A stretch of DNA of 64,000 nt from an uncultured Litoreibacter sp. (GTDB lineage Bacteria > Pseudomonadota > Alphaproteobacteria > Rhodobacterales > Rhodobacteraceae), in the NCBI GenBank assembly GCA_947492995.1, contig CANLOU010000007.1:6900-70899 (forward strand), in the 5' to 3' direction. The position numbers and the translations under genes were made by a program. The notes below the pieces were generated by a model, which saw nothing but the letters and a program-made list of their open reading frames with translations, was not told where the DNA came from and made no database searches. Of the stretch, positions 7,340-25,798 are shown one piece after another (position 1 is the first letter of the stretch; every line of letters begins with the position of its first letter).

Positions 7340-7810
7340 ATGCAAACAGAAGTATTGCGCGTGCTGCGAACTGAAGCTCAGTCGTGGTGGCGGCATCGAG
7401 AGCTTAGAAGAACTGATGACCTTGATGAGGCTTGTCGGCTGGAACGCCAAACTATCCTACGTGACCTTGGCTACCTTCGGACTGCGATCAACAACCCCAA
7501 CGCTTATGTCAGCTGCGGTGGGGGAGGGACCATTATTCACCTCGGGCTGGCAACAGTCTCGCTCTATGCCCCCGTTGAACGCTTCCCGCTCGCCAGCTTG
7601 GCCATCCGGCTTGGAACGCCACTGATCGACTACCGTCCCGTCCGCGACATCATCGCTTTCGCAAACCTGCCCAGGGTCACAATGGACGGCCGGATCGATC
7701 CAGAGCCTTGGACGGCCTCAAGCCGTGTATCGCTCCTGACATATATCGACGCTGCCGAACGCCTCGGCGCTCGTATCGTCAACGATCCGTGCGCAGGTCG
7801 CGCGACCTAA
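7340..7810 (+). CDS. Hypothetical protein (first gene of the co-oriented block)
   Basis: 156-aa ORF with AAGGAA 6 nt upstream of the ATG. Coding-like composition. Its end overlaps the long upstream extension of the ardC frame. No motif recognised. Confidence 0.6.
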   Translation: MQTEVLRVLRTEAQSWWRHRELRRTDDLDEACRLERQTILRDLGYLRTAINNPNAYVSCGGGGTIIHLGLATVSLYAPVERFPLASLAIRLGTPLIDYRPVRDIIAFANLPRVTMDGRIDPEPWTASSRVSLLTYIDAAERLGARIVNDPCAGRAT

Positions 7811-7851
7811 CCCAACCTTCCAAATCAACCCCAACCGAAAGGAGGCCAGCC

Positions 7852-8784
7852 ATGGCCCGTTCCCGCACGTCCAAATTCGACGCATCCGAAGCCATCACCA
7901 ATGAACTCATCCGCATCATCGAACGCGGCGTTCTCCCTTGGCGCAAGCCGTGGACCGCAGGCGGCAGTGCGCGTCCATTGCGCCACAACTCTGAACCCTA
8001 TCAGGGCGTGAACAACTTCCTGCTCACCATGCGCACGGTGGTGGCAGGATATACCTCTCCGTTCTGGATGACGGTGCCGCAGGCGAATACGCTTGGAGCT
8101 AAGATCCGGAAGGGCGAACGATCGTCTGTTGTTGTTTACTATGGCCAGAGCCGAACGCGGTCGGACGATGAGCAAGGCACCAATGATGGCGATACCGCAG
8201 AAGCGCGCGTGTTTCGGTTCCAGAAATCATACCGCGTGTTCAATGCCGACCAAATCGAAGGGCTGCCCGAGGCGTTCCATCCAGATCCGGCGCCAACGCC
8301 AGAACACGCAACAGATCAGGCTATCCCGCATATGCAGAGTTTCTTTGACGCTATCGATATCACGACAGTCTTTGCAGGGGATGAGGCGCGCTACAGTCCT
8401 CCCGTCGACAAGGTGTTCATGCCGGGTATCTCCCGCTTCAAGAACCCGCTGAACTTCTACGGGGTCTGGGCGCACGAGCTTGCCCATGCCACCAAGGCGC
8501 CCCATCGCTTGAATCGAGACTACGGTCTCAGCCGATTTGGCAACACAGCCTATTCCCGCGAAGAGATCGTCGCAGAACTGACGTCCTGCTTTCTGGGGCA
8601 GGAGCTTGGGTTCACTGCGCATACGCTAGAGCTGAACGCGTCGTATCTATATCACTGGCTGCGTGTGCTGCGCTCGGACAAAACCGCGATCTTCAAACAC
8701 GCGGCGGACGCCCAGAAGGCCTGCGATTATCTGATCGCGAGGTCGGAAGCGGGCAGGGCAGGGGCCACCGATCAGGCCGCTTGA
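7852..8784 (+). CDS. ardC: ArdC-like antirestriction protein (ssDNA-binding N-domain + zincin metalloprotease)
   Basis: The internal ATG at 7852 is preceded by GGAGG at 7841-7845. N-terminal LPWRKPW / NSEPYQGVNNFLL (DUF1738-like) and a C-terminal HELAHAT metalloprotease motif. Confidence 0.85.
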   Translation: MARSRTSKFDASEAITNELIRIIERGVLPWRKPWTAGGSARPLRHNSEPYQGVNNFLLTMRTVVAGYTSPFWMTVPQANTLGAKIRKGERSSVVVYYGQSRTRSDDEQGTNDGDTAEARVFRFQKSYRVFNADQIEGLPEAFHPDPAPTPEHATDQAIPHMQSFFDAIDITTVFAGDEARYSPPVDKVFMPGISRFKNPLNFYGVWAHELAHATKAPHRLNRDYGLSRFGNTAYSREEIVAELTSCFLGQELGFTAHTLELNASYLYHWLRVLRSDKTAIFKHAADAQKACDYLIARSEAGRAGATDQAA

Positions 8785-8874
8785 GAGGTCTGGTGCTGTC
8801 GCTGCCTGCGGGTCTCAAAGAGTGAAAGCAAGCTTTTGGTTTTGTGTTTTCAATTTCCTAGAAAGGACAGCCCC

Positions 8875-9264
8875 ATGACCACTTCCGCACTCCCTCAAAC
8901 CGAAGACCCCGACATCGCAGCAATCGCGGCGCAGAATGATGCCTTCCGCAAACTCGCCTGCCTTGGCATCGCACCGGATCAGTCCATTGCCGGCCGTATG
9001 CATGTCACACGGTCTCTTGCTGAAGCCGAAGATGGCTTCATGGCTGAGGCGGTCAAAGCAACAGGTGAGTTCGACGTCTTTGAACCCGAGAATGATCCAG
9101 ACAGATGCCACGACTTCGGGGCCGTGGATATCCGGGGGCAAAAGGTCTTTTGGAAGATCGATCTTTATGAGGCGGATAGCGATTTCCGCTACGGCGCTGA
9201 GACCCCTGACAATCCTGCAACCACCATGCGCGTACTGACCATCATGATGGCATCTGACTGGTAG
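8875..9264 (+). CDS. DUF3768-like protein
   Basis: ATG at 8875 after GAAAGGA. The sequence ...FDVFEPENDPDRCHDFGAVDIRGQKVFWKIDLY... resembles DUF3768 as I remember it. The family name is tentative. Confidence 0.65.
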   Translation: MTTSALPQTEDPDIAAIAAQNDAFRKLACLGIAPDQSIAGRMHVTRSLAEAEDGFMAEAVKATGEFDVFEPENDPDRCHDFGAVDIRGQKVFWKIDLYEADSDFRYGAETPDNPATTMRVLTIMMASDW

Positions 9265-9289
9265 GGCAGGGACCCAACTACAATCCCAA

Positions 9290-9329
9290 GGCTCGCTGAC
9301 CCTCTCCAAAGGGAATGCGGGCCTTTTTT
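9290..9329 (+). terminator. Candidate intrinsic terminator
   Basis: GGCTCGC (9290-9296) pairs with GCGGGCC (9317-9323) with one G-U pair. An inner CCCT/AGGG stem is present, and T6 follows at 9324-9329. Confidence 0.5.
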
Positions 9330-9408
9330 CCATGTGATCCTCAAATCCGGGGATTGGTCAGGCCGTGTCGAATGTTCGGGGCGGCACAACATCTCAAAAG
9401 GATATCAC

Positions 9409-11391
9409 ATGACACATGCTCTCAAATCCATTTCTGTCACCATCGGCGATCTTGTCGCCCATCCCTCCAATGTGCGCAGCAATTCACCTGAAACTTACGA
9501 GACAGAGGCTATCGCCCACCTCACAGCCAGCATCGGCGTCCTCGGCATCATCCAACCGCTGCTGGTTCAAAAGATCGATGGCAAGTTCGGCGTTTTGGCT
9601 GGTGGTCGGCGCCATGCCGCGCTGAACGAATTGGTTGCTGACAAGTCCGCAAAGGGCTTTACCAAGAACACCAAGATCGAATGTCGTTTGGTGCCGGACA
9701 ATTGCGATGTGACCACGGCCCTGTCGCTGGCCGAGAACATCACACAAGCCCCGATGAACGCTATCGACGAGTTCGAAGCGTTTGCGCGAATGATGGAAGT
9801 CGACGGGCAATCGCCAGACACCATCGCCAAGACCTTCGGGACAACGACCGCAGCTGTCAAAGGCCGTTTGCGCTATGGTCTCATTCATCCCGACATCCGC
9901 GCGGCAGCCCGCGCCAAGACGATCACCCTCGATACGATGAAGGCCTTTGCGGACCATCCAAGCCAGGCCGTGCAGCTTGAAGCGTACGAGGCGCTGACGA
10001 GCGATGATAGCTATGTGCAGGCCTATACGGTGCGTCAGGCGCTCAAAACCCGCGGTGTGCAGGTCAGCGACGATATCGGAGCGTTTGTCCGCGAGGAATA
10101 TGAGGCGCGGGGCGGTCCCATCGCTGCCGATCTCCTCGAGGAGCATTCGGTGTTGGAAGACATCGCGCTTGTTGAAACCATCATGGTCGAAAAACTCACC
10201 GCCGCCGCCGAAGAGGCGCGGGCCCAAATGGGGTTTGCGTGGGCCGAGGCGTTGGTGCGTTACGATTATGCAACGATGGCAGAATATGGCCGCGTCTATC
10301 CCGGCCCGATCGAGCCCGATGCCACTGGTCAAAAGCGTGTCGATGCGATCACCGAGGAGCTCGAGAAACTGCAGATTGAGATGGAGGATGAGAGCCTAAA
10401 GACGGATGCCTACAATGCTCTCTACGACCGCGTGGATGCGCTCGAGGAAGAGGCGCGGGATCTGCAGGAGGCCTACAGTGCCGAAGATCTTGAGCAGGGT
10501 GGAGTCATCGCATCCTGGTCAAACAGCAAGATCACGCTGCATGTCGGTCTGGTACGGCCAGAGGACAAGCCTGAGGCGCCGGCGCAGACGACCAGCGCCG
10601 GCGGCACGTCCGGCGGCACAGAAGGGCAGGGCGCAGACGCAATCGTCTACCCAGCCTCGCTGACCCAAGACCTCAAGACCGAACGGGCTATGGCCCTCGG
10701 CGCTGCCATGACGCTGCATCCGGAGGCTACGCTTGATTTGACCTTGTTCAAGCTGGTCACGGACGTGCTTGGTGGCATCAGCACAACTCACGCCGTCAAG
10801 GTCGAGGCCCGCAAAGAATACCGCAGCCATGCCAAGATGGACGAGATAGATGGCACATCGCTGGAACAGGTCGCCGAGGCGCACGACGCACTCGATCTGT
10901 CTTGGGCGGATGAGGCGAAGTCTCCGGCAGATCAGTTTGCGGCGTTCCGTGCACTTGAGGCAGGCGAGAAGGCCAAATTGGTTGCCTATGCCACGGCCAG
11001 CACCACGCAATCCTGTTTTGCCCGCAGCGTTCAGAGCGACAGCCTAATGCATGACTTCGAGATCGAGGTGATGCCCGACCTTCGCGCGCATTGGACGCCG
11101 AATGCGGCGCTGTTTAACCGGTTCAAAAAGGCATGGCTGCTCAAAATCCTTGGTGAAGAGCTCGGCCTTGCGCAGGAGGCGGTGACACTGGCCTCCATGA
11201 GCAAGAAGGAGATCGTCGCCTTTTGCGACAAGCTCTTCGCCGAGCCCTTTGCGACCCTCACGGAGGCGCAGCAGCGGGCGGTTGCGGCGTGGTGCCCGCC
11301 GATGATGCAAACGACCGGGGACGCCAGCTTGGTTGTCGATGCGCAGAAAGACGCCGCTCAAGCCGAGACCGTTCAGGCGAAAGCCGCCTGA
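9409..11391 (+). CDS. ParB-like nuclease (ParB/Srx) domain protein, long C-terminal extension
   Basis: ATG at 9409 after AAAAGGA. N-terminal LVAHPSNVRS...IIQPLLV...VLAGGRRHAAL (ParB N-domain GxxRxxA). About 660 aa. Confidence 0.8.
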   Translation: MTHALKSISVTIGDLVAHPSNVRSNSPETYETEAIAHLTASIGVLGIIQPLLVQKIDGKFGVLAGGRRHAALNELVADKSAKGFTKNTKIECRLVPDNCDVTTALSLAENITQAPMNAIDEFEAFARMMEVDGQSPDTIAKTFGTTTAAVKGRLRYGLIHPDIRAAARAKTITLDTMKAFADHPSQAVQLEAYEALTSDDSYVQAYTVRQALKTRGVQVSDDIGAFVREEYEARGGPIAADLLEEHSVLEDIALVETIMVEKLTAAAEEARAQMGFAWAEALVRYDYATMAEYGRVYPGPIEPDATGQKRVDAITEELEKLQIEMEDESLKTDAYNALYDRVDALEEEARDLQEAYSAEDLEQGGVIASWSNSKITLHVGLVRPEDKPEAPAQTTSAGGTSGGTEGQGADAIVYPASLTQDLKTERAMALGAAMTLHPEATLDLTLFKLVTDVLGGISTTHAVKVEARKEYRSHAKMDEIDGTSLEQVAEAHDALDLSWADEAKSPADQFAAFRALEAGEKAKLVAYATASTTQSCFARSVQSDSLMHDFEIEVMPDLRAHWTPNAALFNRFKKAWLLKILGEELGLAQEAVTLASMSKKEIVAFCDKLFAEPFATLTEAQQRAVAAWCPPMMQTTGDASLVVDAQKDAAQAETVQAKAA

Positions 11392-11474: not shown

Positions 11475-12068
11475 ATGGCTATTCTCAAATTCTCCGCGTC
11501 CGCTGTCGCGGCGCAAATCGCGCACGCGCGCTCGTGTGCAACCTTCCTGCCCAATTGGAACGGGCTCGTCGATAGGCCCGCCCTGATCCTCATCGTTGGG
11601 AACGGCGTGCATCTGCGCTCCAACGGCATTGACGGATCAACCACGCGCATCGTTACCACAGAACACTCTGCCCCTTCCTTTGCCTTTGCGAACGGTATCA
11701 ATCCGTTTCGGGACAGCGATTGGATGGCACAACGTCAAATGGCGTTCCGCGATCTGACCGGGCAGTTCTACACAGACATCCTTGACGATGTGCAGACACT
11801 CATTGATCGCGGGCAGGGGGCCATTCGACTGGCCACCGATGGGCATTCCATCCGCGTCTTTGTGCGCCGCGCCTCAGACTTTCTGGTCGGTGGGACCTAT
11901 GAGGTGCCATCAGGCTTGGGTGGCACATTCCGGGTGGTCATCAAGGACGCCTGCGACACCTTTGCTATCGTTCAGAACTGCGGCAACTGTGAGGACTTCG
12001 ATGCCATGCAGCCGTATCGCGTGCCCCTCGATGCGCTCATCGAACTTGAAGACCGGAGGGCCGCGTAA
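11475..12068 (+). CDS. Hypothetical protein
   Basis: MAILKFSAS... starts at an ATG in frame with the longer track ORF (11223). Its end overlaps the next start (TAATG at 12068). No motif recognised. Confidence 0.6.
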   Translation: MAILKFSASAVAAQIAHARSCATFLPNWNGLVDRPALILIVGNGVHLRSNGIDGSTTRIVTTEHSAPSFAFANGINPFRDSDWMAQRQMAFRDLTGQFYTDILDDVQTLIDRGQGAIRLATDGHSIRVFVRRASDFLVGGTYEVPSGLGGTFRVVIKDACDTFAIVQNCGNCEDFDAMQPYRVPLDALIELEDRRAA

Positions 12069-12724
12069 TGGGTTGGCTCTTTTACACCGACCGGCGAGTT
12101 CAGACCTACGCCGATGAGAAAGCAGAGATCACACGTCTCTGCACCTTCGAGACAGAGACGCGCCGCACGACACTGGTCAAAGCCAGTAAGGTTGGCTCGA
12201 CGTGGTATGCGGCAGCAAAAGTTGTGATCCTTGATGCCGCGCCTTTGAAGGATCAAACATATGTGATCGACAAGGATGGGTCGTTCACCTTCGGTGCAGT
12301 GTTTCTGACGCGGTACGACAACGGGTGCTGGGGCTACAAAGACATGGAGGAAAGCGCTGGCCCTTGCGCGTCCCGCGCGCCACTAAGCATCCTCAATCTC
12401 TTGTCCGAGTTGAAAGACTCCGACAGCTACGCCCACGCTTGGCGGCAGCGGTGTCGGGACTGGGCCGCGATCCCTGATTACGCTGAGGGCGACAAGATCA
12501 AGTTGGTTGCCCCTGTGACCCTCAGCGATGGCAGCACCTGTCAGATCGTCACCGCGACGCATTACGGGCGAGGGCGGCAAAAACGCCGCTGCTACCGCAT
12601 TGAGGAAACCGGCAGCCTTGTGCGGCTCTCAAAGGCGTCACTGGCGGGATCGACCCTCAACAGTCGCGAAATAGCTGAAGGCAGTGCGGTTTTGGCGGAG
12701 TTTTTTGCCCAGCAGACTCCATAG
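12068..12724 (+). CDS. Hypothetical protein
   Basis: 218-aa ORF, translationally coupled to the preceding gene. Contains CWGYKDMEESAGPC. No function assignable by eye. Confidence 0.6.
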   Translation: MGWLFYTDRRVQTYADEKAEITRLCTFETETRRTTLVKASKVGSTWYAAAKVVILDAAPLKDQTYVIDKDGSFTFGAVFLTRYDNGCWGYKDMEESAGPCASRAPLSILNLLSELKDSDSYAHAWRQRCRDWAAIPDYAEGDKIKLVAPVTLSDGSTCQIVTATHYGRGRQKRRCYRIEETGSLVRLSKASLAGSTLNSREIAEGSAVLAEFFAQQTP

Positions 12725-12766: not shown

Positions 12767-12803
12767 GCCTCCTCCGCGCTGCAAAGCGTAGAGGAGGCTT
12801 TTT
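12767..12803 (+). terminator. Intrinsic terminator
   Basis: GCCTCCTCCGCGCT, loop GCAA, AGCGTAGAGGAGGC (8 + 4 bp stem with a 2-nt internal mismatch), followed by TTTTT at 12799-12803. Confidence 0.6.
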
Positions 12804-12843: not shown

Positions 12844-15800
12844 ATGGCCCATCCCAACCCGACGCACTCCAATCAAACTCCATCTAACGCTCAGCTCAAA
12901 TCAGCCCTGTCCTTGATCGCCGCCGAGATCGCGCGCGGTCCTCTGCGCAGCTCCTCTCTCTCAAAGATCATGCGCGACACCTTTGGCGGCAGCGATGCCA
13001 GCGGGGCATGGAGTTGGCGCATGGCCTACGACATGATGCAGGCTGCTGCTGTTCAAGCGATCCTAACGGACGCCAGCGGGTCAGACCCAATTGGTGACGC
13101 AAAAAACCTCGCAACGCGGCTTTTGACCGAAACGCGCCGGTCCGAGCAACAGATCCGCCTGCAACAGTTCTCGACCCCGCTTCCTTACGCAGCCCTCGCC
13201 GTGCGCGCGGCTGCGATCCGTAACGGAGAGATTGTGTTGGAACCTTCTGCAGGAATCGGTTCATTGGCGGGGTTTGCCAAGCGGGCAGGGGCCAAGCTTA
13301 TGCTCAACGAAGTTGACCCGTTTCGCCAGCGGCTGCTCAATGTGGTGTTCGACGCGCAGGCGACGGCGCATGACGCCGAACACATCGATGATCTGCTGAC
13401 ATCAACAGCCGCCCCCAGCATTATCGTGATGAACCCGCCGTTTGCATCCTCGGTCGATCGATCCCGCGATAAGCACATTGCGGCCAAACATCTCATTGGC
13501 GCCGCGAAACGATTGGCACCCGGCGGGCGTCTTGTTGCGATCCTGCCGATGGGCTTCACCCCCGAGCGCGACGCAGCACATTGGGCGCGTGCGATGAGCC
13601 TTCTCACGCCGCGCTTGGCCCTCACCATCCCCGGCCATGTTTATCGCAAGCTCGGCACTAGCGTGGATACTCAACTAATGGTCTTTGATAAGGTCGATGA
13701 GGGAGTCGAGATGATCCGCACCTCCGTCGATGATCTCGACGCGGCGGTCAGTATCGTGGACCAGATTGCCAAAGCGCGTCCGATTGAAGCGCCAGTGAAG
13801 GCGGCACGTTCCTTGCACGTCGGGCTCCCCCTGTTGGGACCCGCGTCTCACAAAGCGCACAAGCCTGCAGTATCAAATCCATCTGGTGCCAAAACGCCAA
13901 AACACGCAGCAATACTGCTGTCATTCACTACGCTCGAGACCCCGCGCGAAAACACCCCCATCTCCGAGATCTATGCCCGTTATCGCCCGCAGCGGATCGA
14001 CATTGCGGGCGCACAGGAACACCCAACACCGCTGGTGGAAAGCATTGCCATGGCGTCGGTCGCACCCCCCGTGCCGTCCTTGCAGGCCGCCGAGGGACTG
14101 CGCCTGCCGAACCGACTGATTGCAGAAGGTCATCTCTCCGAGGCTCAACTGGAAACCATCATCATGGCCAACGATGCCCACGGGCGTGATTTGCCCGGCA
14201 AGTTCACCATCGATGACGACCAGACCAAGATGCTGCGCAGTGACGAGGATGCGGAGGCACGTGCCTACCGCTTGGGGTATTTCCTCGGGGACGGCACCGG
14301 CTGCGGCAAAGGACGTGAGTGCGCAGGCCTTATTCTGGTCAATTGGCTCTCCGGGCGGCGCAAAGCCGTCTGGGTGTCCAAATCTGCCACGCTGATTGAG
14401 GACGCCGTGCGCGACTGGACAGACCTCGGTGGCTCACCCGCAGATATCCAGCCACTCTCGAAATGGAAGCCCGACCAGCGTATCATCATGGGCGATGGCA
14501 TCTTGTTCGTGACCTATGCCACGCTGCGGTCTGCCGGCAAATGCGGTACGACACGTCTGAACCAACTGCTCGACTGGATGGGGGGCGACTTCGATGGCGT
14601 GCTCGCCTTTGATGAGGCCCACGCGATGCAAAATGCGGCCGGATCGGAGCAGGGCAGGGGGGCAAAACCGTCCCAGCAGGGTCTTGCGGGGCTGCGCCTG
14701 CAATTGGCCGCTCCGCGCGCTCGCGTCTTCTATGTCTCGGCGACGGGGGCCACATCTGTCCACAATCTCGCCTATGCATCCCGGCTTGGGCTTTGGGGCC
14801 AAGGGTCCGAATATCCCTTCCCGAGCCGCGAGAGCTTCGTCTCAGCGATGGAGGCGGGCGGTGTGGCCGCCATGGAAGTTGTGGCCCGCGATCTCAAAAC
14901 ACTTGGGTTCTATACGGCGCGGGCGTTGAGCTTTGACGGGGTCGAATACGATGTGTTGGAACATGCACTGACACCTGCCCAAACAGAGATCTACGACGCC
15001 TATGCGGGCGCGTTCCGCACGATCCACCATAACTTAGAAGCCGCACTGACCGCGACAGGCGTCAATGACGCATCGGGAGAGACAAATGCCTCTGCTGCAA
15101 AAGCATCCGCCAAATCGCGGTTTGAGAGCACAAAGCAGCGCTTCTTCAATCATCTGCTGATGGGCATGAAAGCCCCATCAATTGTCAGCGCCATTCAGCA
15201 GGACCTATCTGACGGCTATGCCTGCGTCATCCAGGTGGTCTCAACCGGCGAAAGCCTTTTGAAGCGCCGCTTGGAGATGATGGACCCTGACGATGAACTC
15301 GTCGAAGGCGCGCTAACACCGCGCGATTACGTGCTCGGCTACCTCGAACAGGCCTTTCCGATCCACACCCAGAAGCTTGTCGAGATTGACGGCAATGTCG
15401 TGGCCGAACCGCTGCGGGATGAAACAGGGGCCTTGGTCGTCTCCCGTGAAGCCTTAGCATTGCGGGACGAGGCGATGATGGATTTGATGGCGCTGGCCCC
15501 GATCCCCGCGGCACTAGATCAAATCCTCTGGGCGTTCGGGGATGAGGCAGTCGCTGAAGTCACAGGCCGGTCCATCCGCCCGCTCAAATCCAGCGACGGC
15601 GCGCTCTTCATCGAAAAGCGCAGCTCCAGCAGCAATTCCTCCGAGACGCAGGCGTTTATGGATGGCGAAAAAAACATCCTAATCTTCTCAGATGCGGGTG
15701 GCACAGGGCGGTCCTATCATGCGGCACAAACGGCGAAGAACCAGAAGCGGCGGCGGCACTACCTGCTGGAACCTGGCTGGCGGGCGGATGCAGCCATTCA

Positions 15801-17109: not shown

Positions 17110-17114
17110 TCAGC

Positions 17115-18531: not shown

Positions 18532-21500
18532 ATGAATACTAATCTTACTAAATTGTGCCTCTGGGCCTTCAACAAGTTCATCAAGATAGCAGAAACACTG
18601 CGCTTGAAATCCGCTTCGCCCGTAGGGCCATCAAAATTCGTCGATTTAGCTCCGACTGATGAGGCTGACCAAGGAGGAGTATATTCGGCTGCTTTGAAGT
18701 TCGCGACCGACAGTCCGGACGTGTCAAACATCGCGCTCACTGGGCCTTACGGCTCCGGCAAGAGCAGCATCATCCGATCTTTCCTGAAATCCTATCCTCG
18801 CGAAGCCCTGCATATCTCCCTCGCAGCCTTCTTGCCGGAAGCAGGTGATGAGCGACGCACAGTGACCAAACAGGAAATTGAGCGAAGTATCCTTCAACAA
18901 CTTCTATATGGCGCAGATTCAAACAAACTGCCCCTCTCGCGCTTTAAACGTATCCAATCACCGGGATTCTGGTCGATCTTCCGATCTTTCTACATTCTTT
19001 CCGGACTGCTCGCTCTTTGGCATACGTTCTACAATCGCGCAGCAATTTTTGAGGGATCGTATTTCGAGCCTTTCGATCTTACGAACTGGTTCAATATATC
19101 CTCAGCCGTTTTCGCTCTAATCTTCCTTTGGTCTGTGATCCATCACTTTTACGTCGCCAGCTTCGGTGTGTCTCTCAAGAGCATTTCGCTGAAGGACATT
19201 GAGATGCGGCCGTCTTCGGAAGACCAAGATTCAATCCTCAATCGTCATCTGGATGAGATCGTCTACTTCTTCCAATCTACGCGCTACGACCTCGTGGTCG
19301 TGGAAGATCTCGATCGCTTTGAAGATGCCGACATCTTCGTTACACTTCGCGAGATCAACAGTCTCGTGAACAGCAATGTAGGCGTGAAACGCCAAATCCG
19401 ATTCTTATACGCGCTGCGCGACGACATGTTCGCCAACACTGACCGGACCAAGTTCTTTGAATTCATCATCCCCGTTATTCCGATTATTAATAGCTCGAAC
19501 TCGATTGATATGGTGCTCGCCCAAGGTGAGCGGCTGGAACTGGACGGAAGGCTAGATCAGCAATTCCTGCGAGAGGTGTCTCGCTACCTCAGCGATCTCC
19601 GGCTGATCCATAACATTTTCAACGAGTATGCGATTTACGTCGCAAACTTGGAAACTGACGGTGAGAACGTACTTGACGCCACAAAGCTTCTTGCGGTGCT
19701 AATCTATAAGAATGTCTATCCTAGGGATTTCGAACAGCTTCATCGGGGCGAGGGGCATCTCGCTGGAATTTTGGGGCGTAAGGACGAGATCATCGCCACT
19801 CTTGAACGAGGCTATCGATCCGAGATCGCTGAACTCGAACGCGATATTGCAGCGGCTGAACAGCAAATTCCGAAAGATCGGCGCGAGCTCAACCGCATTT
19901 ATGCGATGGCCCTCCTCGAAACGCTTCCCGCCAATACCATTGGCGTTGGCAGGACCGTACAAGAGCGCATTTCGCTCACAAATTTATCCGAGCACGCAAA
20001 TTTCGAAGAAATTATCGCGACACCGAACCTCTACTATCATAGTGTCAATGGTCGCGCGCGGCATGACAATTCTAGCTTGGCAGACAGCGTAAACTCCGAA
20101 GCAAGTTATGGTGAACGGGTGCGAAGCATCGAACAGAAAGCGGACGCACACAAGAAGGCTGCACATCGGCGAATCTCCGTTCTGAAAAGCGAGATCAAGA
20201 CTATTCGAACGAGCAAGTTTAACGCCTTGCTGCGCTCAAGCGCGTTAGAAATCGAGAACCTCTTCGAAAATCTGGGTGAGGGCGGCGAACTCGCCCGGTT
20301 TTTGCTTCTGGAAGGCCATCTCGATGATAGTTACTACCAGTATACCTCCTTGTTCCACACTGGACGGCTTTCACCGAACGACAACAAGTTCCTGATTCAG
20401 ATAAGGGCTTTCCATACACCTGAACCCCTGTTTCCGATCGACAACCCGAATGAAGTTATCGCCGGAATGAGGGAGGACGATTTTGGCCTTGATTATGCGC
20501 TGAACGTTCGACTTGTCGACGCGCTCTTGGAGAGCGGGGAGCATAAGAACCTACTGGAAAAGGTTTTTGGATATCTTTCAAATGAGTTTCCCAATCAGCA
20601 GGAGTTCTTCGAGGCCTACTACGCGACGGGATTGCACATTAGCGAATTCATGAGGCAGTTCATTGACGCTTGGCGCGGTTTCGTACCCGCGGCAATTGAG
20701 GATTCCTCCGCAATTTTGCATATATCACGCCTCATCGAGCATCTTTCGCCAACCATGCTGGCCCGGGAACGCGAGGAGCACCCCGAGCTGCGAGCGTTCG
20801 CGGCCAACAATCTCCGGGACCTTCTCGACCTGTTAGAGGGGATGGACCCGGGCAAGCTTGAAGAGTTGCGGATCGAAACGAAGGATCTTGCTGCCATCGA
20901 TGAATATCCGAACGTTGCGCGCAAACTGTACGAGTTCGGTCATTACTGCCTGAACGCTGCTAACTTTGACTACATTTTCGGCTCTATCCTCGGAGTAGAA
21001 ACTGGCCCAAACTTGCGTAAGCGACATTACTCGAGGGTTCGAAACTCTGGAGCCGAACCGCTCCTCAACCGGGTGGAAAGCGATCTTTCAGCGTACTTCA
21101 CGAACGTACTGTTGGAGATGAATGAGGACGATGAGGAGGATATCGAAGCGATATTGGCCGTGATGTCACACGATCAGCTCGATGCCGACGATGTCGAAGC
21201 GTTCGTCCTACGACAAACCAAGCTTCTGCCAACACTGGAAGAAATACCCGAGCGCTATCAGCCCATGGTGCTCCGTGGGACACAGATCGCTCCTACTTGG
21301 TCCAACTGTCTCGCCTTCGTCCAGTCTGAAAATTTCGAGGGCGACGCTCTCATAGCTTTCCTTGGCGATGATGAGGTCCGTGCCGCTCTCTTGAAAACTC
21401 CAGTTCCAGAACCAAAAGAAGCACTCCCTCTCCGTCAGTTCCTCATCGATGCAGAAGGTCTCCCCGATAGCGTCTATCGTGATTATATCCGGGCGCTTCC

Positions 21501-22134
21501 TAAGGAATTCAAGGCATTTCCCAATGCAGTAAGCGCCGGCAAACGTCGAATACTCATCGAAGAGCGACGCGTCACCTTTAACGCCGAGAACTTGGCCACG
21601 CTTGACGGCGAGGCTGATATGCAAACGGCATTCGTCGCTCAGAATATCGCCTCCTATCTTCGCGACCCCAGCTCGTATTCGATTGACGATAGCTTCCGCG
21701 AGAGATTGCTTGCCACCGATATCTCGGACGATGAAAAGCGGGCGCTCATTGGTTTGATGGACTTGAGCGCTCTTCCCAACCTTCCAGAGCGCGCTGGCAT
21801 TGTCGGGCCAATCCTTTTGCGGGCAAATGGCGCGCTGCCTTCACTCACCCCTGAGATCGTCAAGGCAGTTGTTAAGAATACCAAGCCAGTCGCCACCCAG
21901 GTCCAGTTGCTCAATCTCCTCCATGAAACACTCGACACGAACGATATTCGTGAGGTCTTGGGACAGCTTTCTTACCCATATTCGAAAATCCAAACAGGAT
22001 ATGCTCGTCCCACTCTCAAGAGAACGAATGAAAACAGCGAACTTGTTAGGTGGTTGGACGAGCGCAACATCATCTCTTCAGCAGGGACACCGTTCTGGTC
22101 AAACGATATCATGGTTAATTTATATCGGTCATAA
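18532..22134 (+). CDS. YobI/KAP-type P-loop NTPase with membrane insertion (1200 aa)
   Basis: Walker A LTGPYGSGKSSI, then two hydrophobic helices (FWSIFRSFYILSGLLALW, ISSAVFALIFLWSVIHHFYV) inserted before Walker B DLVVVEDLDRFED. FVTLREINSLVN and FFEFIIPVIPIINSSNS follow. The roughly 750-aa helical C-terminus has no recognisable effector motif. Sampled lines are 43-50% GC, against roughly 58-73% in the flanks. Confidence 0.75.
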   Translation: MNTNLTKLCLWAFNKFIKIAETLRLKSASPVGPSKFVDLAPTDEADQGGVYSAALKFATDSPDVSNIALTGPYGSGKSSIIRSFLKSYPREALHISLAAFLPEAGDERRTVTKQEIERSILQQLLYGADSNKLPLSRFKRIQSPGFWSIFRSFYILSGLLALWHTFYNRAAIFEGSYFEPFDLTNWFNISSAVFALIFLWSVIHHFYVASFGVSLKSISLKDIEMRPSSEDQDSILNRHLDEIVYFFQSTRYDLVVVEDLDRFEDADIFVTLREINSLVNSNVGVKRQIRFLYALRDDMFANTDRTKFFEFIIPVIPIINSSNSIDMVLAQGERLELDGRLDQQFLREVSRYLSDLRLIHNIFNEYAIYVANLETDGENVLDATKLLAVLIYKNVYPRDFEQLHRGEGHLAGILGRKDEIIATLERGYRSEIAELERDIAAAEQQIPKDRRELNRIYAMALLETLPANTIGVGRTVQERISLTNLSEHANFEEIIATPNLYYHSVNGRARHDNSSLADSVNSEASYGERVRSIEQKADAHKKAAHRRISVLKSEIKTIRTSKFNALLRSSALEIENLFENLGEGGELARFLLLEGHLDDSYYQYTSLFHTGRLSPNDNKFLIQIRAFHTPEPLFPIDNPNEVIAGMREDDFGLDYALNVRLVDALLESGEHKNLLEKVFGYLSNEFPNQQEFFEAYYATGLHISEFMRQFIDAWRGFVPAAIEDSSAILHISRLIEHLSPTMLAREREEHPELRAFAANNLRDLLDLLEGMDPGKLEELRIETKDLAAIDEYPNVARKLYEFGHYCLNAANFDYIFGSILGVETGPNLRKRHYSRVRNSGAEPLLNRVESDLSAYFTNVLLEMNEDDEEDIEAILAVMSHDQLDADDVEAFVLRQTKLLPTLEEIPERYQPMVLRGTQIAPTWSNCLAFVQSENFEGDALIAFLGDDEVRAALLKTPVPEPKEALPLRQFLIDAEGLPDSVYRDYIRALPKEFKAFPNAVSAGKRRILIEERRVTFNAENLATLDGEADMQTAFVAQNIASYLRDPSSYSIDDSFRERLLATDISDDEKRALIGLMDLSALPNLPERAGIVGPILLRANGALPSLTPEIVKAVVKNTKPVATQVQLLNLLHETLDTNDIREVLGQLSYPYSKIQTGYARPTLKRTNENSELVRWLDERNIISSAGTPFWSNDIMVNLYRS

Positions 22135-22989
22135 GGCGGTTGCCTATGCTTTCGGCTCCTTCGCGCGCCCTAATGCGCCCAAGTTTCGGCATTTGACGGG
22201 TGTATGTACTGTAATTGATCGGAGATGCAGGTTTCTGCATTTTCACTGTAATGGTCAAATTTCCGAAACAAGGAGAGAGCGGGCTTTCATTCGTTGTTAT
22301 ATGGATTTCGGCTATGAGCCGAAATTTTGCGATTGATTTCACTTCTTCTCCCAAATTCAACCATCGTGCACCCCCCAGCATCAGCAATTATGGACTTGAA
22401 GCGGACATTTATGTGAGCGGCGCAATTAGGTCTGTCGGCAGTTTAGCCTAACGGCCCCACCCTGCTCGGCTTCGCGTGTCGCGGGTAAGAACGGCCCTGC
22501 GGCCCGTCGCGCATGCGGCCATGCGGCCTTACCGCGGCGTCGGCGCGTGGGTCCCGGTTTGCCCGTCTCACGAGCACGGCGGGTCTCGGCCACGCCTGCG
22601 GTTTCCACTCTGGTCTGTTTTGCTAAAGCAAAACGATCCCGCCGCTCCATCCGCCTGCGTGTCCCGCTCCCGCCGCTTGCCTGCTCGCGTCGGGCAAACC
22701 TCGCGTCAAAACACACACACATGAGTATGGAAGCATATCCTCCGGATGGCCCCCAAATCAGCCCGCCTCAAGGATCGCAAAACTTTTCGGCGAGGGTCAT
22801 GCGGGTTGCGAGGTCTATCGCGCGCGTGAGGTTGCGCTTGTTGTGAGCAGCTGCGCTTGGAAAACTTTTACGCCCAGCAAGCTGGCGGCTGCGCCGTCCC
22901 TGACCCGGACAGATTCGGTGAACCAGAAATCGGCCATGCCCCCACAATCACGTGGCGGTCCTCAAACTCAAACATCTGGAGATGAACAC

Positions 22990-23919
22990 ATGGCCTACGA
23001 TCAAGCGACAACATACGAGACAATCGAACTCTTCGGCCTTACGGAGAAAGATGCACACCTGCCAATCCCGCAGGACGATATGCTGAAAGACAGCATCATC
23101 CGCGAAGCCTTCGAGACCCTGCTCGGGCAATTGCGGAATACTGGACTTGAAGGAGAGATCGAACCTCTCGCGCACGGGTTGGCGACAATCCTGCAGCGCC
23201 GCAAGGTTGCCCTCGGCAAAGAAGCCGACCGCACAACTGACAAGATAGGTGCACTGGCAAAATGCCACGATGGATCAGAGATCGCAGAGACGGCTCTGGA
23301 AGAGGCACAAGCGCGCTTCGTGCAATTGCGCGAGATAGTGGACGCCATTGAGACGATGGGGGAGGCGGCAGCGGAATGCTACGAGGTCGAGACCGGCAAT
23401 GCCTTCATCCCGGCAGCGGGATCGCGCGCCAGCGTTCGGGCGCAAGAGACGGGTGCCGTCTTCGAAGCCAAGCAGCTTCTGGAGCAGCATGATCGTGAGA
23501 CCGCCGCCAAGTCGAAAGTCGAGGGAGTTCCTCTGATTGTCTCGGGAGCGACGGACTGGACTGACATCGACGTCATCTTCCAGACACTCGATAAGGTGCG
23601 CGACCGCATTAAGCAAAACCGCAATCAAGATATCTTCATCTGCCACAAAGGCGGCAAGCATGGGGCGGAAATGATCGCGGCGCGGTGGGCGCGTGCGCGA
23701 GGTATCAATCAAGCGCGCTTTGATCCGCGTTGGTCCGCACATGGACGCGCAGCACCCTTCAAGTGCAACGACGAGATGCTGGACGATAAGTTCGCCGCAA
23801 CTGGAGTTGTTCTCTTCGGCGGCAACGGGGTCGCAATGAACCTCGGCCAGAAAGCCGAAACGAAAGGACTGACGGTGATGCGGGTCGCGGATCCGGCCAA
23901 GACATCGGGCGAGGCATAA
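22990..23919 (+). CDS. DUF2493 (SLOG-like) domain protein with an unknown ~190-aa N-terminal domain
   Basis: ATG at 22990 with GGAGA 7 nt upstream. C-terminal LIVSGATDWTDIDVIF...ICHKGGKHGAEMIAARWARARGI...FDPRWSAHGRAAPFKCNDEML...VLFGGNGVAMNL matches the DUF2493 pattern. Confidence 0.7.
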   Translation: MAYDQATTYETIELFGLTEKDAHLPIPQDDMLKDSIIREAFETLLGQLRNTGLEGEIEPLAHGLATILQRRKVALGKEADRTTDKIGALAKCHDGSEIAETALEEAQARFVQLREIVDAIETMGEAAAECYEVETGNAFIPAAGSRASVRAQETGAVFEAKQLLEQHDRETAAKSKVEGVPLIVSGATDWTDIDVIFQTLDKVRDRIKQNRNQDIFICHKGGKHGAEMIAARWARARGINQARFDPRWSAHGRAAPFKCNDEMLDDKFAATGVVLFGGNGVAMNLGQKAETKGLTVMRVADPAKTSGEA

Positions 23920-23927
23920 GTCAGACA

Positions 23928-23959
23928 GGGTCACCTTCGGGTGGCCCCTTCTTCGTTCT
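23928..23959 (+). terminator. Candidate intrinsic terminator
   Basis: GGGTCACC, loop TTCG, GGTGGCCC (one G-U pair), followed by the T-rich CTTCTTCGTTCT. Confidence 0.55.
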
Positions 23960-24153
23960 CAAGATCGTGGGTAGACATTCAGATGCGTGGTGCTGATCTG
24001 CAGTAAAGGTTCATTTAGGTCATGACGGTAGATGTCCGATTTCCCAGTTTTCCGATTAGCTTGACCTTATCTCAATGTAATCCCAGTCTATTGTGTCCGC
24101 GCGGCAAATGACTTTTGTTGTGCAGCATATCACGCGCGCAGGTTTTTCAGTCG

Positions 24154-25230
24154 ATGCCCTTTTCTCCAGACCGCACCAAAGAGATTCAATCGCGCATTGA
24201 TGCGCGTTTGCAGTCTGGTCAGGCAAACGATTGGGAGGTGTCGTTTCTCACAAACATGGCCGAGCGCTTTCAGAAGTATGGAACCAATACGCGTCTGAGT
24301 AAGGCTCAATATGCCAGCTTGCACAAAGTCCTGAAGTTGGAACGTGAGCCATCATCGCGGGTCACTGCGCCGGCCAACGATCGCGTGCCGCGCTCGGCCC
24401 CGAAGCGCAGTGCCAAATCTTACCAACCAAAAACCCGACCGATGTCTGTAACCCGCGCAATCACTGCACCGCGGCGGGCGGTCCGTAGGGCTCAGCGACA
24501 AATCATGGTGCCGCTCGTTATTGCGGTGGCGTTCTTCGCGCTGATTGGATCCTTCTTCGATTCAACATCATCGCAATCCACATCTTACGGCTCACCAGCG
24601 ACGTCCGCACCACAAACAACGAGCACCGCTTACGTCTATGTGACGGGGACACGAGTCAATCAACGGGACGGGCCGTCCACGTCTGATCGGGTCATGGGCG
24701 TTTTGGTTGAAGGCACCCGTGTCCAGCTGCTTCGTGACCAAGGACAATGGGCGCAAATTAGGTCTGACTTGGGAACCGGCTGGATGTCCTCTAGCTTGCT
24801 GTCTCTCAATAGGCCGACCACGGCGCAACCCACAACACAGGATCGGGGTCTTCGTGCCAGCGATGTCAGGATCATTGATGGTGATACGATAAACGTGCGT
24901 GGGATTACTCCCAACGTACGCCTAGTCGGTTTCAATGCTCCCGAGACATGGCGGCCTTCTTGCACCGCAGAGCGTCAGGTCGGGGAACGCGCAACGGCGC
25001 GTCTGAGCCAGCTGGTGCGGAATGCGGCATCAATAGAATTTGAACGCGTGGCATGTTCGTGTCGACCCGGAACCGAAGGTACAGATCAATGTAATTTTGG
25101 CCGGCTTTGTGGCTCGCTGTTCGTCGACGGCCAGGATGTGGGGCGCACACTGATTGGTGAAGGACTGGCCGTGCCATACCGGTGCGGTCGGACAAGCTGC
25201 CCTCCGCGGCCTCAAGCTTGGTGCCGATAA
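24154..25230 (+). CDS. Membrane-anchored SH3b + staphylococcal-nuclease (thermonuclease) domain protein
   Basis: N-terminal soluble region and one TM helix (IMVPLVIAVAFFALIGSFF). SH3b-like YVTGTRVNQRDGPSTSDRVMGVLVEGTRVQLL...WAQI. SNase-like IIDGDTINVRGITPNVRLVGFNAPET...C...R. Confidence 0.8.
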   Translation: MPFSPDRTKEIQSRIDARLQSGQANDWEVSFLTNMAERFQKYGTNTRLSKAQYASLHKVLKLEREPSSRVTAPANDRVPRSAPKRSAKSYQPKTRPMSVTRAITAPRRAVRRAQRQIMVPLVIAVAFFALIGSFFDSTSSQSTSYGSPATSAPQTTSTAYVYVTGTRVNQRDGPSTSDRVMGVLVEGTRVQLLRDQGQWAQIRSDLGTGWMSSSLLSLNRPTTAQPTTQDRGLRASDVRIIDGDTINVRGITPNVRLVGFNAPETWRPSCTAERQVGERATARLSQLVRNAASIEFERVACSCRPGTEGTDQCNFGRLCGSLFVDGQDVGRTLIGEGLAVPYRCGRTSCPPRPQAWCR

Positions 25231-25591
25231 CGTCGCAGCCATCTCAACACCGAGAAACTGGACTTCGCCCGAGGCTGAAAACCCTCCCTGCTGTTCGTTG
25301 AGCGTGACGGACCAAATCCCAACACGTCACCTCACAGCGAACCCGACCTTCACCTCTATCGAGATCAACGAGAACCGTGGCGACTGCGATATGGGGGCAC
25401 ACATTTGGGTCTCTTCTTTTAGCTCATTGATGTGGATCGCACGGGGTCGGACCGCTCGTGCCCGCAGCATAGCTGCGGCAAGAACAAATACGGCTTCCAC
25501 GCCTTTGGCGCGGACCCTCCGCATTTGCGCTTGCGACCGGTCCTGGTCCCCCCGTGCCAAGAAATCCACATCGCAAAAAGGAGAGACCCAA

Positions 25592-25798
25592 ATGACCAAC
25601 CACTACGTCGCAACAGTTCCCGTCAAATACACCGATGGCGAAGGCCAGGAGCGCACCCGTTTCCAACGCGTCGGGGCCATGTTCCGCAACACCCGTAACG
25701 GGGATGGCTCCGAGTTCTTCAGCCTCAAGCTCGACTTCCCCGTCGGAGTCCAAGAGCTGGTGATGTTCCCACCAAGCTCTAAGGAACCCCAAGAGTAA
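25592..25798 (+). CDS. Small hypothetical protein (68 aa)
   Basis: AAAGGAGAG RBS 6 nt before the ATG at 25592. Sequence: MTNHYVATVPVKYTDGEGQERTRFQRVGAMFRNTRNGDGSEFFSLKLDFPVGVQELVMFPP. Followed by a clean terminator. Confidence 0.6.
   Translation: MTNHYVATVPVKYTDGEGQERTRFQRVGAMFRNTRNGDGSEFFSLKLDFPVGVQELVMFPPSSKEPQE

Follow-up and report, generated by a model that had tools for sequence, protein, structure and literature searches.

The 18.5-kb block of genes that lies between repC (5726–6820, plus strand) and the relaxase operon is likely a leading region, the part that enters a recipient first and helps the plasmid to establish itself, in a family of Rhodobacterales repABC plasmids whose conjugation uses VirB/VirD4 and a VirD2-like MOBP relaxase. 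The window (the whole 64-kb stretch of DNA analyzed) belongs to a Rhodobacterales repABC/VirB-T4SS plasmid, most likely from a marine roseobacter, and the block's backbone is common, in the same gene order, to 216 plasmids. The leading-region assignment of the sequence-only reading, which gave no evidence on the direction of transfer, is supported by two independent lines on that direction, the polarity of a predicted nick core and strand-specific hairpins in the first kilobase, and by gene families listed in a published survey. From gene order, strand, conservation, nick-core homology, strand-specific structures, and protein homologies, all computed in silico, we infer the nick, early expression, and anti-defence activity. 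The block is a fresh example of an already known type of region, not a novel one.

As that reading had proposed, the block is co-oriented: the ORF listing, matches in Pfam, NCBIfam, and PADLOC, and the annotation of relatives assign to the plus strand all 12 credible genes, as well as one pseudogene, in the interval from repC to the relaxase operon. None of the block's minus-strand ORFs has a family match or an annotated counterpart in relatives, where backbone genes are always on the plus strand and minus-strand genes occur only in variable slots or mobile-element insertions (a recombinase trio in locus L009, for example). Co-orientation is not specific to the block, as the run of plus-strand genes begins at repA (3319) and continues to about 41.3 kb. 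Strong terminators (hairpin plus T-run) directly after stop codons close the units. The terminators said to split the block were recovered by a scan at 18400, 23928, and 25814 and by eye, as hairpin plus T-run in the sequence, at about 9290, 12767, and 17115/17154; overall, terminator-like sites are no more numerous than expected by chance (18 versus 20.5).

The relaxase operon (26373–30811) is colinear with that of relatives. Matches in Pfam and NCBIfam identify its plus-strand products as an HTH accessory protein (26373–26966), a VirD2-like MOBP relaxase (26947–28818), and a VirD4 coupling protein (about 28827–30811). The relaxase matches VirD2 (E 2.9e-23) and MobP1 (E 5e-8) in NCBIfam and PF03432 in Pfam, and is 32–34% identical to Ti-plasmid VirD2 in tblastn. 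Upstream of the operon, conservation is highest in a predicted nic core of the T-DNA-border/RP4 type, CCTATTTCCTG|CCACC, on the minus strand at 26343–26358. The predicted nick, 26348|26347, falls just to the right of the 25.9–26.3 kb range previously proposed for oriT. This core sits within a 31-nt run that is invariant across 10 loci, and over 12 loci, whose relaxases are 38–100% identical, the sole conserved block is GGCA(G/A)GAAAT on the plus strand, or ATTTC(C/T)TG|CC on the minus strand. Since 15–30 nt separate the core from the start codon of the downstream HTH gene, part of this conservation could reflect translation signals. The minus-strand oligonucleotide for the predicted nic is GACCCCCTATTTCCTGCCACCTTC. 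Searchable literature describes no native oriT or mapped nick for this plasmid family.

VirD2 and RP4 TraI require 5'-ATCCTG-3', with the consensus YATCCTG|Y, and both remain on the 5' end. The predicted core matches the T-border core TGGCAGGATATAT at 11 of 13 positions and YATCCTGY at 7 of 8. Around the nick it reads TTTCCTG|CCA, compared with ATATCCTG|CCA in the T-border and TATCCTG|CCC in RP4; it thus resembles these sites, as its relaxase resembles VirD2, but departs from the MOBP hexamer by one mismatch (TTCCTG, not ATCCTG). A further difference is a 12-bp inverted repeat, ATACAAGGCTGC (26255–26266 and 26328–26339), that flanks the sigma-70-like promoter of the relaxase operon (26296–26323) and lies 8 nt from the predicted nick on its 3' (leading) side, whereas the repeats of RP4 and tfs4 lie on the 5' side. 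In distant lineages the arms co-vary and remain 8 nt from the nick core; the repeat is probably an operator and a binding site for the relaxosome accessory protein, which here is of the HTH_28/HTH_23 type and not VirD1 or TraJ. Because the core reads on the minus strand, that strand would be the T-strand, bringing the block in first and providing the template for its backbone genes.

Conserved hairpins in the first kilobase on the block side of the nick fold much better as the minus strand. Element A (25392–25604, minus strand) is a near-continuous hairpin of 200 nt whose base takes in the RBS and start codon (ATG) of the gene for a 68-aa protein. It forms 76 pairs; 97.6% of its cells are paired (59 cells being G.T) versus 37–42% in slid controls. 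Its consensus energy is -50.2 as the minus strand versus -34.0 as the plus strand, 10 of 10 sequences are more stable as the minus strand, and it is the most stable 200-nt window in 2.8–31 kb (z -7.4). Compensatory changes are visible in the alignments of elements B and C (together 25950–26142, minus strand), both biased toward the minus strand: B is a conserved branched hairpin with outer 27-nt arms at 25959–25985 and 26060–26086 (inverted repeat I1), and C is a hairpin at 26114–26142. Minus- versus plus-strand energies are -34.7 versus -26.7 for B and -9.8 versus -4.1 for C, again with 10 of 10 sequences stabler as the minus strand, and their region has the largest strand asymmetry in 3–42 kb (z -4.0). 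Windows with z < -2 account for 7 of 21 at 25.2–26.0 kb versus 16 of 954 elsewhere in 3–42 kb. A non-coding stretch of about 550 nt ahead of the DUF2493 gene (22440–22989, minus strand), structured and highly conserved, also folds better as the minus strand (consensus energy -89.4 versus -63.2 as the plus strand in alignment A6), its single-window strand bias being modest (z down to -2.2). Inter-unit regions distant from oriT have no strand-biased structure. For the part of single-strand promoter, priming signal, or conversion roadblock, these minus-strand-specific hairpins ahead of the first units are the foremost candidates. A similar minus-strand bias, without explanation, occurs in the 5' part of repC. 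An ORF at 25903–26277, earlier read as mobC, was rejected as a gene: it has no Pfam match, is unannotated in all relatives, and aligns with frame-breaking indels.

The first gene to enter under this model (25592–25798; terminator 25814–25833) encodes the 68-aa small beta protein, which 10 of 15 loci share at 85–100% identity and whose family comprises 73 clusters, with named members all from Rhodobacterales. Its model (pLDDT 85) has four strands; it has no Pfam match, and fold searches gave no significant match. Next lies a gene for an SH3 plus staphylococcal-nuclease-like protein (24115–25230; SH3_3 E 4e-10, SNase E 9e-5 in Pfam) that probably starts at 24154 and is limited to about a third of the relatives in the presence/absence map. 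The DUF2493/YAcAr SLOG-domain protein (22990–23919, terminator at 23928) matches PF10686 (E 1.1e-19) at amino acids 230–300 of a long ORF, with its N-terminal half outside the match. A variable slot (18430–22440) that holds defence or other cargo in relatives contains a large gene (18532–22134), passed over in the sequence-only reading, whose product matches Tmn in PADLOC (E 4.4e-74) and YobI-ATPase in Pfam (E 1.9e-121). This region has a GC content of 0.51 versus 0.57–0.61 for the backbone, and the gene has no DNA match in 15 relatives. The product resembles the single-gene Tmn anti-phage defence in its HMM match, its YobI-like P-loop NTPase domain, and its single hydrophobic segment (amino acids 186–213), but the match spans only the N-terminal 640 of 1200 amino acids; this is a putative defence gene in a cargo hot spot.

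Beyond the slot, a DUF736 protein (17643–18371; PF05284, E 3.6e-24) is followed by a strong terminator (18400–18427). Tblastn with the products of loci L001 and L004 revealed a pseudogene of a conserved 71-aa backbone gene, with two in-frame stops, at 17216–17425. A large gene (12844–17109) encodes an orphan N6-methyltransferase (NPPF) fused to a Strawberry-notch-type helicase (GCGKGR, DEAH); it matches AAA_34 (E 5e-114), Helicase_C_4 (E 2e-94), and, weakly, MTS in Pfam, as well as the mad2 methyltransferase in PADLOC (E 3e-13), and no endonuclease gene is adjacent. The slot after the preceding terminator (12767–12803; 14-bp stem plus TTTTT) holds toxin-antitoxin pairs in loci L001, L002, L003, L012, L014, and L015. 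Upstream lie genes for a DUF6927 protein (12068–12724; PF21992, E 1.9e-28) and a conserved 197-aa protein (11475–12068) that NCBI names "regulator" and some members of which match DUF3085; the poor model of the latter (pLDDT 62) gave no significant match in a fold search.

The gene at 9334–11391, whose true start is probably 9409, encodes a large HerB/YfjB-like ParB-family protein (ParB_N and HTH_ParB in Pfam) with a ParB N-domain that contains a GGRRH box, an HTH, and a long C-terminal half. It matches phrog_7783 along its full length (E 1.5e-54), and its C-terminal 445 amino acids are 25% identical over 78% to the ParB-like gene between ssb and psiB in an IncF leading region (E 4e-6), to which the protein is related along its entire length. 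The F homologue HerB is zygotically induced and acts by reprogramming the host, not by blocking a defence. The ParB-like protein and the methyltransferase-helicase are candidates for establishment functions. A DUF3768 gene (8875–9264; PF12599, E 3.9e-29) is kept in relatives. ArdC (7852–8784, with an RBS at the 7852 start) matches ArdC-N, the ssDNA-binding domain (E 7.6e-33), and the zincin metallopeptidase domain MPTase-PolyVal (E 3.2e-36) in Pfam and contains the HExxH motif as HELAH. A 156-aa backbone protein at the block's distal end (7340–7810) is found in close relatives and forms a family of 121 clusters at 50% identity, with no match in Pfam, PHROG, PADLOC, or PDB. The ORFs lacking an assigned function, previously put forward as anti-defence candidates, recur across related conjugative plasmids and lack any housekeeping homologue; none could be tied to any function, and PADLOC and PHROG gave no functional match.

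The arrangement resembles the F/IncF leading region (ssb, yfjB/herB, psiB, psiA, with the ssDNA promoters Frpo/ssp) in that genes all point toward oriT and run in the direction of the transfer operon, in its large HerB-type ParB-like protein, orphan methylase, and anti-restriction gene, and in its stem-loops that precede early genes on the transferred strand. It differs in its VirD2-like MOBP relaxase (F is MOBF), in lacking psiB/psiA and, throughout the lineage, ssb, in a gene set that consists mostly of DUFs, and in hairpins that have no Rfam match or recognizable sigma-70 -35/-10 pair. On the same side of oriT and in the same orientation, a related lineage has ssb, DUF4942, and ArdC. Like the leading-region anti-defence islands (Samuel et al. 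2024, PMC11541004), the block adjoins oriT in T-strand-template orientation, has ArdC, methyltransferase, ParB, and DUF736 families, and has toxin-antitoxin pairs in relatives. The survey's supplementary table includes ArdC, ParB, DUF736, and Strawberry-notch/methylase; the first three are among its top 100 enriched families, all in T-strand-template orientation, at median ORF positions from oriT of 10, 11, and 5–8 (PMC11541004), compared with ranks of 11, 9, and 5 here. The MOBP2 (VirD2) class showed no anti-defence enrichment in that survey and was left out for this reason (PMC11541004). The earlier label of anti-defence island holds in part: ArdC is the sole block gene with a relative of demonstrated anti-restriction activity, and the hot spot embedded in the block carries a predicted defence gene. 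The predicted ArdC shares with that of IncW pSa/R388 the ArdC-N and HExxH metallopeptidase domains and the establishment/leading-region placement, but its gene is at the block's far end, 18 kb away from oriT.

Could the block instead enter last, as an ordinary maintenance backbone behind a relaxase operon that leads from a nick on the plus strand, opposite the predicted site or elsewhere? MOBT-type systems send the relaxase gene first, and the plus-strand geometry (repeat arm GCAGCCTTGTAT, 8 nt, cleavage position) is canonical, as in RP4. The weak plus-strand nic-like sites, GGCTGCCTG|CGC at 26259–26270 and TTGACCCTG|TC near 26065, are not conserved in loci L004–L008, however, and the MOBP core reads 5'-3' on the minus strand, the single-stranded sequence that relaxases of this class recognize. 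With the hairpins on the minus strand as well, and gene content and ORF positions in agreement with leading regions, we consider entry of the block last very improbable. The hairpins themselves might act as antisense or regulatory RNAs, or solely in translational control at the mRNA level, rather than as ssDNA promoters or priming signals. The pairing of element A's base with the translation start (RBS and ATG) of the 68-aa gene would suit an antisense RNA, a TTGACG hexamer lies on the minus strand just inside that gene, and both the missing sigma-70 hexamer pair and the comparable bias in repC point the same way. Against this, no minus-strand promoter or terminator was called at the hairpins, and several separate non-coding elements, all proximal to oriT, favor the very strand that was independently predicted to be transferred; a role as RNA seems unlikely to us.

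It is also conceivable, although we lean against it, that the block enters first but serves mainly replication, partition, and stability, with genes of unassigned function devoted to maintenance or transfer regulation instead of anti-defence. The single characterized anti-restriction relative, the missing PADLOC and PHROG functional matches, the "regulator" name of the 197-aa family, and HerB's action on the host all fit such a role, as do the toxin-antitoxin modules and a ParB-family protein. That protein has no ParA partner beside it, however (RepAB is located elsewhere), an orphan methyltransferase and ArdC are typical counter-restriction tools, and the published survey found the block's families enriched at leading ends.

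Under the leading-region reading, we propose the following course of transfer. Binding of the HTH protein to the inverted repeat that flanks its promoter would help the relaxase nick the minus strand. Because this strand would exit 5' end first, DNA at lower coordinates would enter ahead: the structured non-coding kilobase, then the 68-aa, nuclease, and SLOG/DUF2493 genes, the cargo slot, DUF736, the methyltransferase-helicase, DUF6927, the 197-aa gene, the HerB-like ParB gene, DUF3768, ArdC, and the 156-aa gene, with the relaxase operon last. As the T-strand would be the template of all backbone genes, transcription could in principle begin before the complementary strand is made. The block most likely combines conserved establishment and anti-restriction genes, conserved genes without known function, and one swapped-in phage-defence gene. 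Its products would protect and establish the plasmid, with ArdC countering restriction, the methyltransferase acting by self-methylation, and the HerB-like ParB acting on host DNA.

The 20 kb around the block of genes that lies between repC and the relaxase operon (7340-25798) match 216 plasmids with 77-89% identity. These plasmids come from Sulfitobacter, Pseudosulfitobacter, Phaeobacter, Roseovarius, Paracoccus, and related genera, and most of them are typed as conjugative, MOBP, and MPF_T. The window contains repA, repB, and repC (3319-6820), an operon that encodes an HTH protein, a VirD2-like relaxase, and VirD4 (26373-30811), and a complete virB1-virB11 set on the minus strand (42.7-53.8 kb). 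The plasmid matches together with these genes identify the window as a repABC plasmid of the roseobacter group that encodes a type IV secretion system. Conjugation across genera has been demonstrated for D. shibae plasmids of the same family. A gene for a Fic-domain protein of 511 amino acids (994-2529) lies upstream of repA on the opposite, minus strand; a Fic protein is likewise encoded near the relaxase operon of a Martelella relative. Cumulative GC skew across the whole window drops from 1 to ~21-25 kb and then climbs, with a turning point near the predicted oriT rather than near repC.

The sequence-only reading had proposed that all credible genes between repC and the relaxase operon point the same way. 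Indeed, 12 of 12 credible genes and one pseudogene lie on the plus strand. Annotation of the relatives contains the same genes, gene for gene, with backbone genes always on the plus strand. The plus-strand run is wider than the block, extending from repA to ~41 kb. The intrinsic terminators assigned to the block are real hairpin-plus-T-run structures directly past stop codons; counted overall, terminator-like sites are no more frequent than in shuffled sequence. The proposed mobC gene (25903-26277) did not hold up. This ORF has no family match, is unannotated in every relative, and is broken by indels in alignments; we therefore dropped it as a gene. The region 25799-26372 is non-coding over its full length.

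The conservation map, in which the window was compared with 15 fetched loci and read together with locus annotation, reveals one backbone order from a 156-aa gene through VirD4. The order is the 156-aa gene, ArdC, (DUF6330), DUF3768, ParB-like, a 197-aa "regulator", DUF6927, a first slot, MTase-Strawberry-notch helicase, (DUF6878 and two small genes), DUF736, a second cargo slot, DUF2493/SLOG, (SH3-nuclease or nucleotidyltransferase), a 68-aa gene, 570 nt of non-coding DNA, HTH, relaxase, and VirD4. Most relatives carry the DUF6878 gene and a neighboring 153-aa gene between helicase and DUF736; both are absent from the window. The pseudogene (17216-17425, plus strand) derives from a conserved 71-aa backbone gene and has two in-frame stop codons. 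In D. shibae pDSHI03 (L009, 161-6076), three tyrosine recombinase genes in a row, inserted on the opposite strand, appear to truncate the Strawberry-notch helicase gene.

The searchable literature yielded no native oriT for plasmids of this family. The relaxase matches the NCBIfam VirD2 model with an E value of 2.9e-23, a match that falls short of the equivalog cut-off, and Pfam PF03432 (MobA/VirD2 nuclease domain) with an E value of 1.5e-14. It shares 32-34% identity with VirD2 of Ti plasmids, and relatives are typed as MOBP by PLSDB. By these comparisons, the enzyme is classed as a VirD2-like relaxase of the MOBP class. Relative to its homologs, the relaxase (26947-28818) is shorter by ~120 residues, in frame, within the variable middle part, such that amino acids 487-641 of one related relaxase (L001) correspond to ~32 amino acids in the window; the N-terminal nuclease domain and C-terminus are intact.

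Both VirD2 and TraI of RP4 depend on the core 5'-ATCCTG-3' in single-stranded form (consensus YATCCTG/Y, where the slash marks the cut). They cut 3' of the G and remain attached to the downstream DNA at its 5' end. We aligned the DNA upstream of the relaxase operon from loci with relaxases that are 38-100% identical. Inverted repeats and all other sequence in this region drift or are replaced. The single block kept in 12 of 12 loci is plus-strand G(G/T)TGGCA(G/A)GAAAT, which is located 15-30 nt before the HTH start and falls, in the ten closer loci, within a 31-nt invariant run that is the longest of the region. On the minus strand, the predicted nic core (26343-26358) reads CCTATTTCCTG/CCACC, and the sequence at the predicted nic is GACCCCCTATTTCCTGCCACCTTCATAC. 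The motif TTTCCTGC agrees with the MOBP core 5'-YATCCTG/Y-3' at 7 of 8 positions, the difference being A to T at hexamer position 1; it is conserved in 10 loci, with CTTG instead in two distant loci. The predicted core also matches the T-DNA border core TGGCAGGATATAT at 11 of 13 positions. In T-DNA borders, the cut strand reads ...CCTG/CCA, and transfer starts with the DNA that lies 3' of the cut on the same strand. Applied to the minus-strand core, this rule predicts a nick on the minus strand between 26348 and 26347, and the minus strand would be the T-strand, with the block leading and the relaxase operon entering last. The sequence-only reading had called the block a likely leading region with the incoming strand as template. 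Nick-core polarity, as predicted in silico, likewise puts the block on the first-entering side of oriT, and the predicted minus T-strand would be the template of all backbone genes, including the 12 of 12 plus-strand genes of the block.

A 12-bp inverted repeat (26255-26266/26328-26339) encloses the relaxase-operon promoter and lies 8 nt from the predicted nick, on its 3' side. In MOBP systems, the nicked strand is expected to carry an inverted repeat immediately 5' of the nick; contrary to this expectation, no conserved repeat was found there, and the repeat-to-nick geometry is reversed compared with that of RP4. This reversal is the main reason for keeping in view the opposite polarity, which would remove the block from the first-entering side and which we consider improbable given the minus-strand core. 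T-DNA borders are likewise not known to have a 5' inverted repeat. In distant lineages the 8-nt spacing is kept and the repeat arms co-vary, which suggests that the HTH protein binds there. Both strands were searched for the RP4-style layout (repeat, 8 nt, nick). Plus-strand nick candidates GGCTGCCTG/CGC (26259-26270) and TTGACCCTG/TC (~26065) were rejected for lack of conservation in more distant loci, and TCGCACCTGCGGTGCT, which may resemble part of the RP4 oriT, was not used as evidence. A T-border-like site in ardC (8042-8054, plus strand; TGGCAGGATATAC, 12 of 13 positions) is absent from all 11 relatives compared and is probably due to chance; it is oriented like the predicted nic core at 26345-26357, and the two sites would bracket nearly the whole block like a border pair. 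In two relatives with a divergent ParA cluster that adjoins oriT, dozens of short repeats rich in GT (TGTCCGGTGTTGC-like) fill the intergenic region (L005, 7682-8200; L006, 7658-8250) and probably form a centromere or iteron array.

The leading-region concept and several of the gene families in the block have been described previously. ArdC contains an ArdC-N domain and a zincin peptidase with an intact HExxH motif. In the 1421-aa MTase-helicase, an NPPF methylase motif is accompanied by a P-loop and a DEAH box; a partner endonuclease for it was not found. The ParB-like protein comprises ParB_N, HTH_ParB, and a GGRRH (CTP-binding) box. Its C-terminal 445 residues, which lie outside the ParB domains, match 3,534 plasmid records that are mostly enterobacterial. 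In the one record examined, the match (E value 4e-6) is a gene of the ParB family, flanked by ssb and psiB within a textbook IncF leading region, where every gene points to oriT and traM. YfjB/HerB, the F homolog of this IncF protein, has the same architecture and is induced at once upon entry. The N-domain, box, and HTH, together with a long C-terminal part homologous to the IncF protein, fit a HerB/YfjB-like leading-region ParB.

A published survey of plasmid leading regions (Samuel et al. 2024, PMC11541004) lists among its top 100 families, with median ORF positions from oriT in a supplementary table, ParB (11), ArdC (10), and two DUF736 families (8 and 5) with members from Ti/Ri plasmids and Mesorhizobium. 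All are in the T-strand-template orientation, and a Strawberry-notch/methylase family appears in the same table (PMC11541004). Counted from the predicted nick in the window, DUF736 is ORF 5, ParB ORF 9, and ArdC ORF 11. Toxin-antitoxin pairs and ssb are found in relatives; in the lineage with the ParA cluster beside oriT, ArdC, DUF4942, and ssb still point to oriT on the same side. The co-oriented block is real, and its reading as a leading region held up under the tests possible in silico. The further description of the block as an anti-defense island was borne out in part: ArdC and the orphan MTase-helicase are present, but only one gene has a characterized anti-restriction relative.

The ORFs without known function are all conserved backbone genes present in related plasmids, which removes one ground for rejecting the sequence-only reading. 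The 68-aa protein belongs to a small family (73 clusters) whose named members are all Rhodobacterales. Its structure model is confident and all-beta; Foldseek revealed no significant match to known structures, the best being uncharacterized small phage proteins, and no relationship to the DUF736 protein was detectable. The 197-aa protein is distantly related to DUF3085, and its poor model gave no significant Foldseek match. Profile searches of the PDB with both proteins were uninformative. The 156-aa protein belongs to a wider family (121 clusters at 50% identity) with no Pfam or PDB relative. None of these ORFs gave a hit in PADLOC or to a functionally named PHROG. The ORFs are anti-defense candidates, ranked by position only.

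We scanned 2.8-31 kb for stable structures in 200-nt windows, using DNA energy parameters and GC-corrected z scores. The most stable structure (25400-25600) has a z of -7.4 on the minus strand and is followed by 25900-26150. A strand-asymmetry scan of 975 windows across 3-42 kb gave a mean between-strand difference of +0.5 kcal/mol (sd 3.5), with the largest minus-strand excess at 25960 (-13.6, z -4.0). Windows with z below -2 made up 7 of 21 within 25.2-26.0 kb versus 16 of 954 elsewhere, a contrast that is descriptive only because the windows overlap. Element A (25392-25604) is a single long hairpin of 76 pairs. Across ten sequences, 97.6% of cells are paired versus 37-42% with slid partners; three pairs are changed on both sides, and 59 G.T cells would become C.A mismatches on the plus strand. 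The consensus energy is -50.2 for the minus versus -34.0 for the plus strand, and 10 of 10 sequences are more stable as the minus strand. At its base, element A covers the ribosome-binding site and start codon (ATG) of the 68-aa gene. The same minus-strand behavior is seen in element B (25950-26100), a branched hairpin that has variable loops and shows compensatory changes, and in hairpin C (26114-26142); two neighboring control segments lack it. Upstream of the DUF2493 gene, a stretch of 550 nt is highly conserved, non-coding by indel pattern, and better folded as the minus strand (-89 versus -63); its single-window bias is modest. Other inter-unit regions further from oriT have no bias except for one minus-strand window at the DUF736 start (17600, z -2.9).

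Strong minus-strand-biased folding, comparable to that of the oriT-proximal elements, also occurs in the 5' part of repC (5720-6080, z -2.8 to -3.4). This bias was rejected as a positive control in the form of the repABC antisense RNA, because the biased windows lie inside repC and not in the repB-repC spacer, the expected site of that RNA.

The strand preferred by the hairpins is the strand independently predicted as transferred. In the F plasmid, stem-loops of the incoming strand serve as promoters on single-stranded DNA, as primers, and as roadblocks to conversion, and by analogy the oriT-proximal hairpins would play the same roles. Alternatively, the minus-strand hairpins could be antisense RNAs. 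A visual search recognized no -35/-10 hexamer pairs in the hairpins, which favors this alternative; we give it serious weight and judge it rather unlikely. Rfam at gathering thresholds returned no match in the 64 kb, and a search for direct repeats common to the non-coding elements produced nothing convincing. If the hairpins are instead T-strand signals, they may express or prime the first-entering genes, and element A, until unwound, may hide the start of the gene that enters first of all.

The first slot, empty in the window, carries toxin-antitoxin pairs in six relatives; an IS110 element lies 3' of DUF3768 in two relatives. The contents of the second slot, between DUF736 and DUF2493 (18430-22440), vary from plasmid to plasmid, and this slot is an insertion or cargo hot spot in the window and nine relatives (L001-L004, L009, and L012-L015). 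Defense cargo in relatives comprises ABC-three-component systems, NotI-type R-M, CBASS plus VapC/XRE, SIR2 plus ATPase, and TIR proteins; other cargo includes an S8 peptidase plus ATPase, an imuA-imuB-dnaE2 mutagenesis cassette, and metabolic genes. Cargo genes are often on the minus strand and backbone genes never are. In the window, the slot holds a gene for a YobI-like NTPase of 1200 amino acids, which matches the PADLOC Tmn defense profile over amino acids 39-644 (E value 4.4e-74) and has one hydrophobic segment. The gene has a lower G+C content, and no DNA match to it was found in any of the 15 fetched loci. The profile match and the combination of an NTPase with a membrane segment fit assignment of this protein to Tmn.

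It is tempting to speculate that roseobacter VirB/VirD2-type plasmids possess their own class of T-strand hairpin signals with no visible likeness to Frpo, new anti-defense backbone proteins, and a hot spot that spreads defense systems, a combined proposal that we advance tentatively and hold to be possible rather than probable. New anti-defense proteins may be found among the 68-aa beta, 156-aa, DUF3085-like, DUF6927, DUF3768, DUF736, and SLOG/DUF2493 proteins; the SLOG protein could bind or destroy nucleotide immune signals. The leading region may double as an insertion hot spot that spreads defense systems. Measured against the searchable literature, the predicted nick and transfer polarity for this Rhodobacterales plasmid family, the strand-specific hairpins outside any known family, and a leading region that also hosts a defense-cargo hot spot are new.

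Roseobacter-group plasmids with this backbone are numerous, the block being common to 216 records. In the searchable literature we found neither an oriT nor a leading region for these plasmids; the predicted nick therefore provides a concrete target for mapping, and the predicted direction of transfer can be checked by mating. Three or four strand-specific structures are candidate single-strand promoters outside enterobacterial models, and seven conserved proteins without known function, ordered by entry, are candidates for anti-defense or establishment. Defense systems (Tmn, CBASS, SIR2, TIR, R-M, and ABC-3C) are carried within the leading region as predicted here, and a relaxase class without reported enrichment in a large survey may still have a typical leading region.
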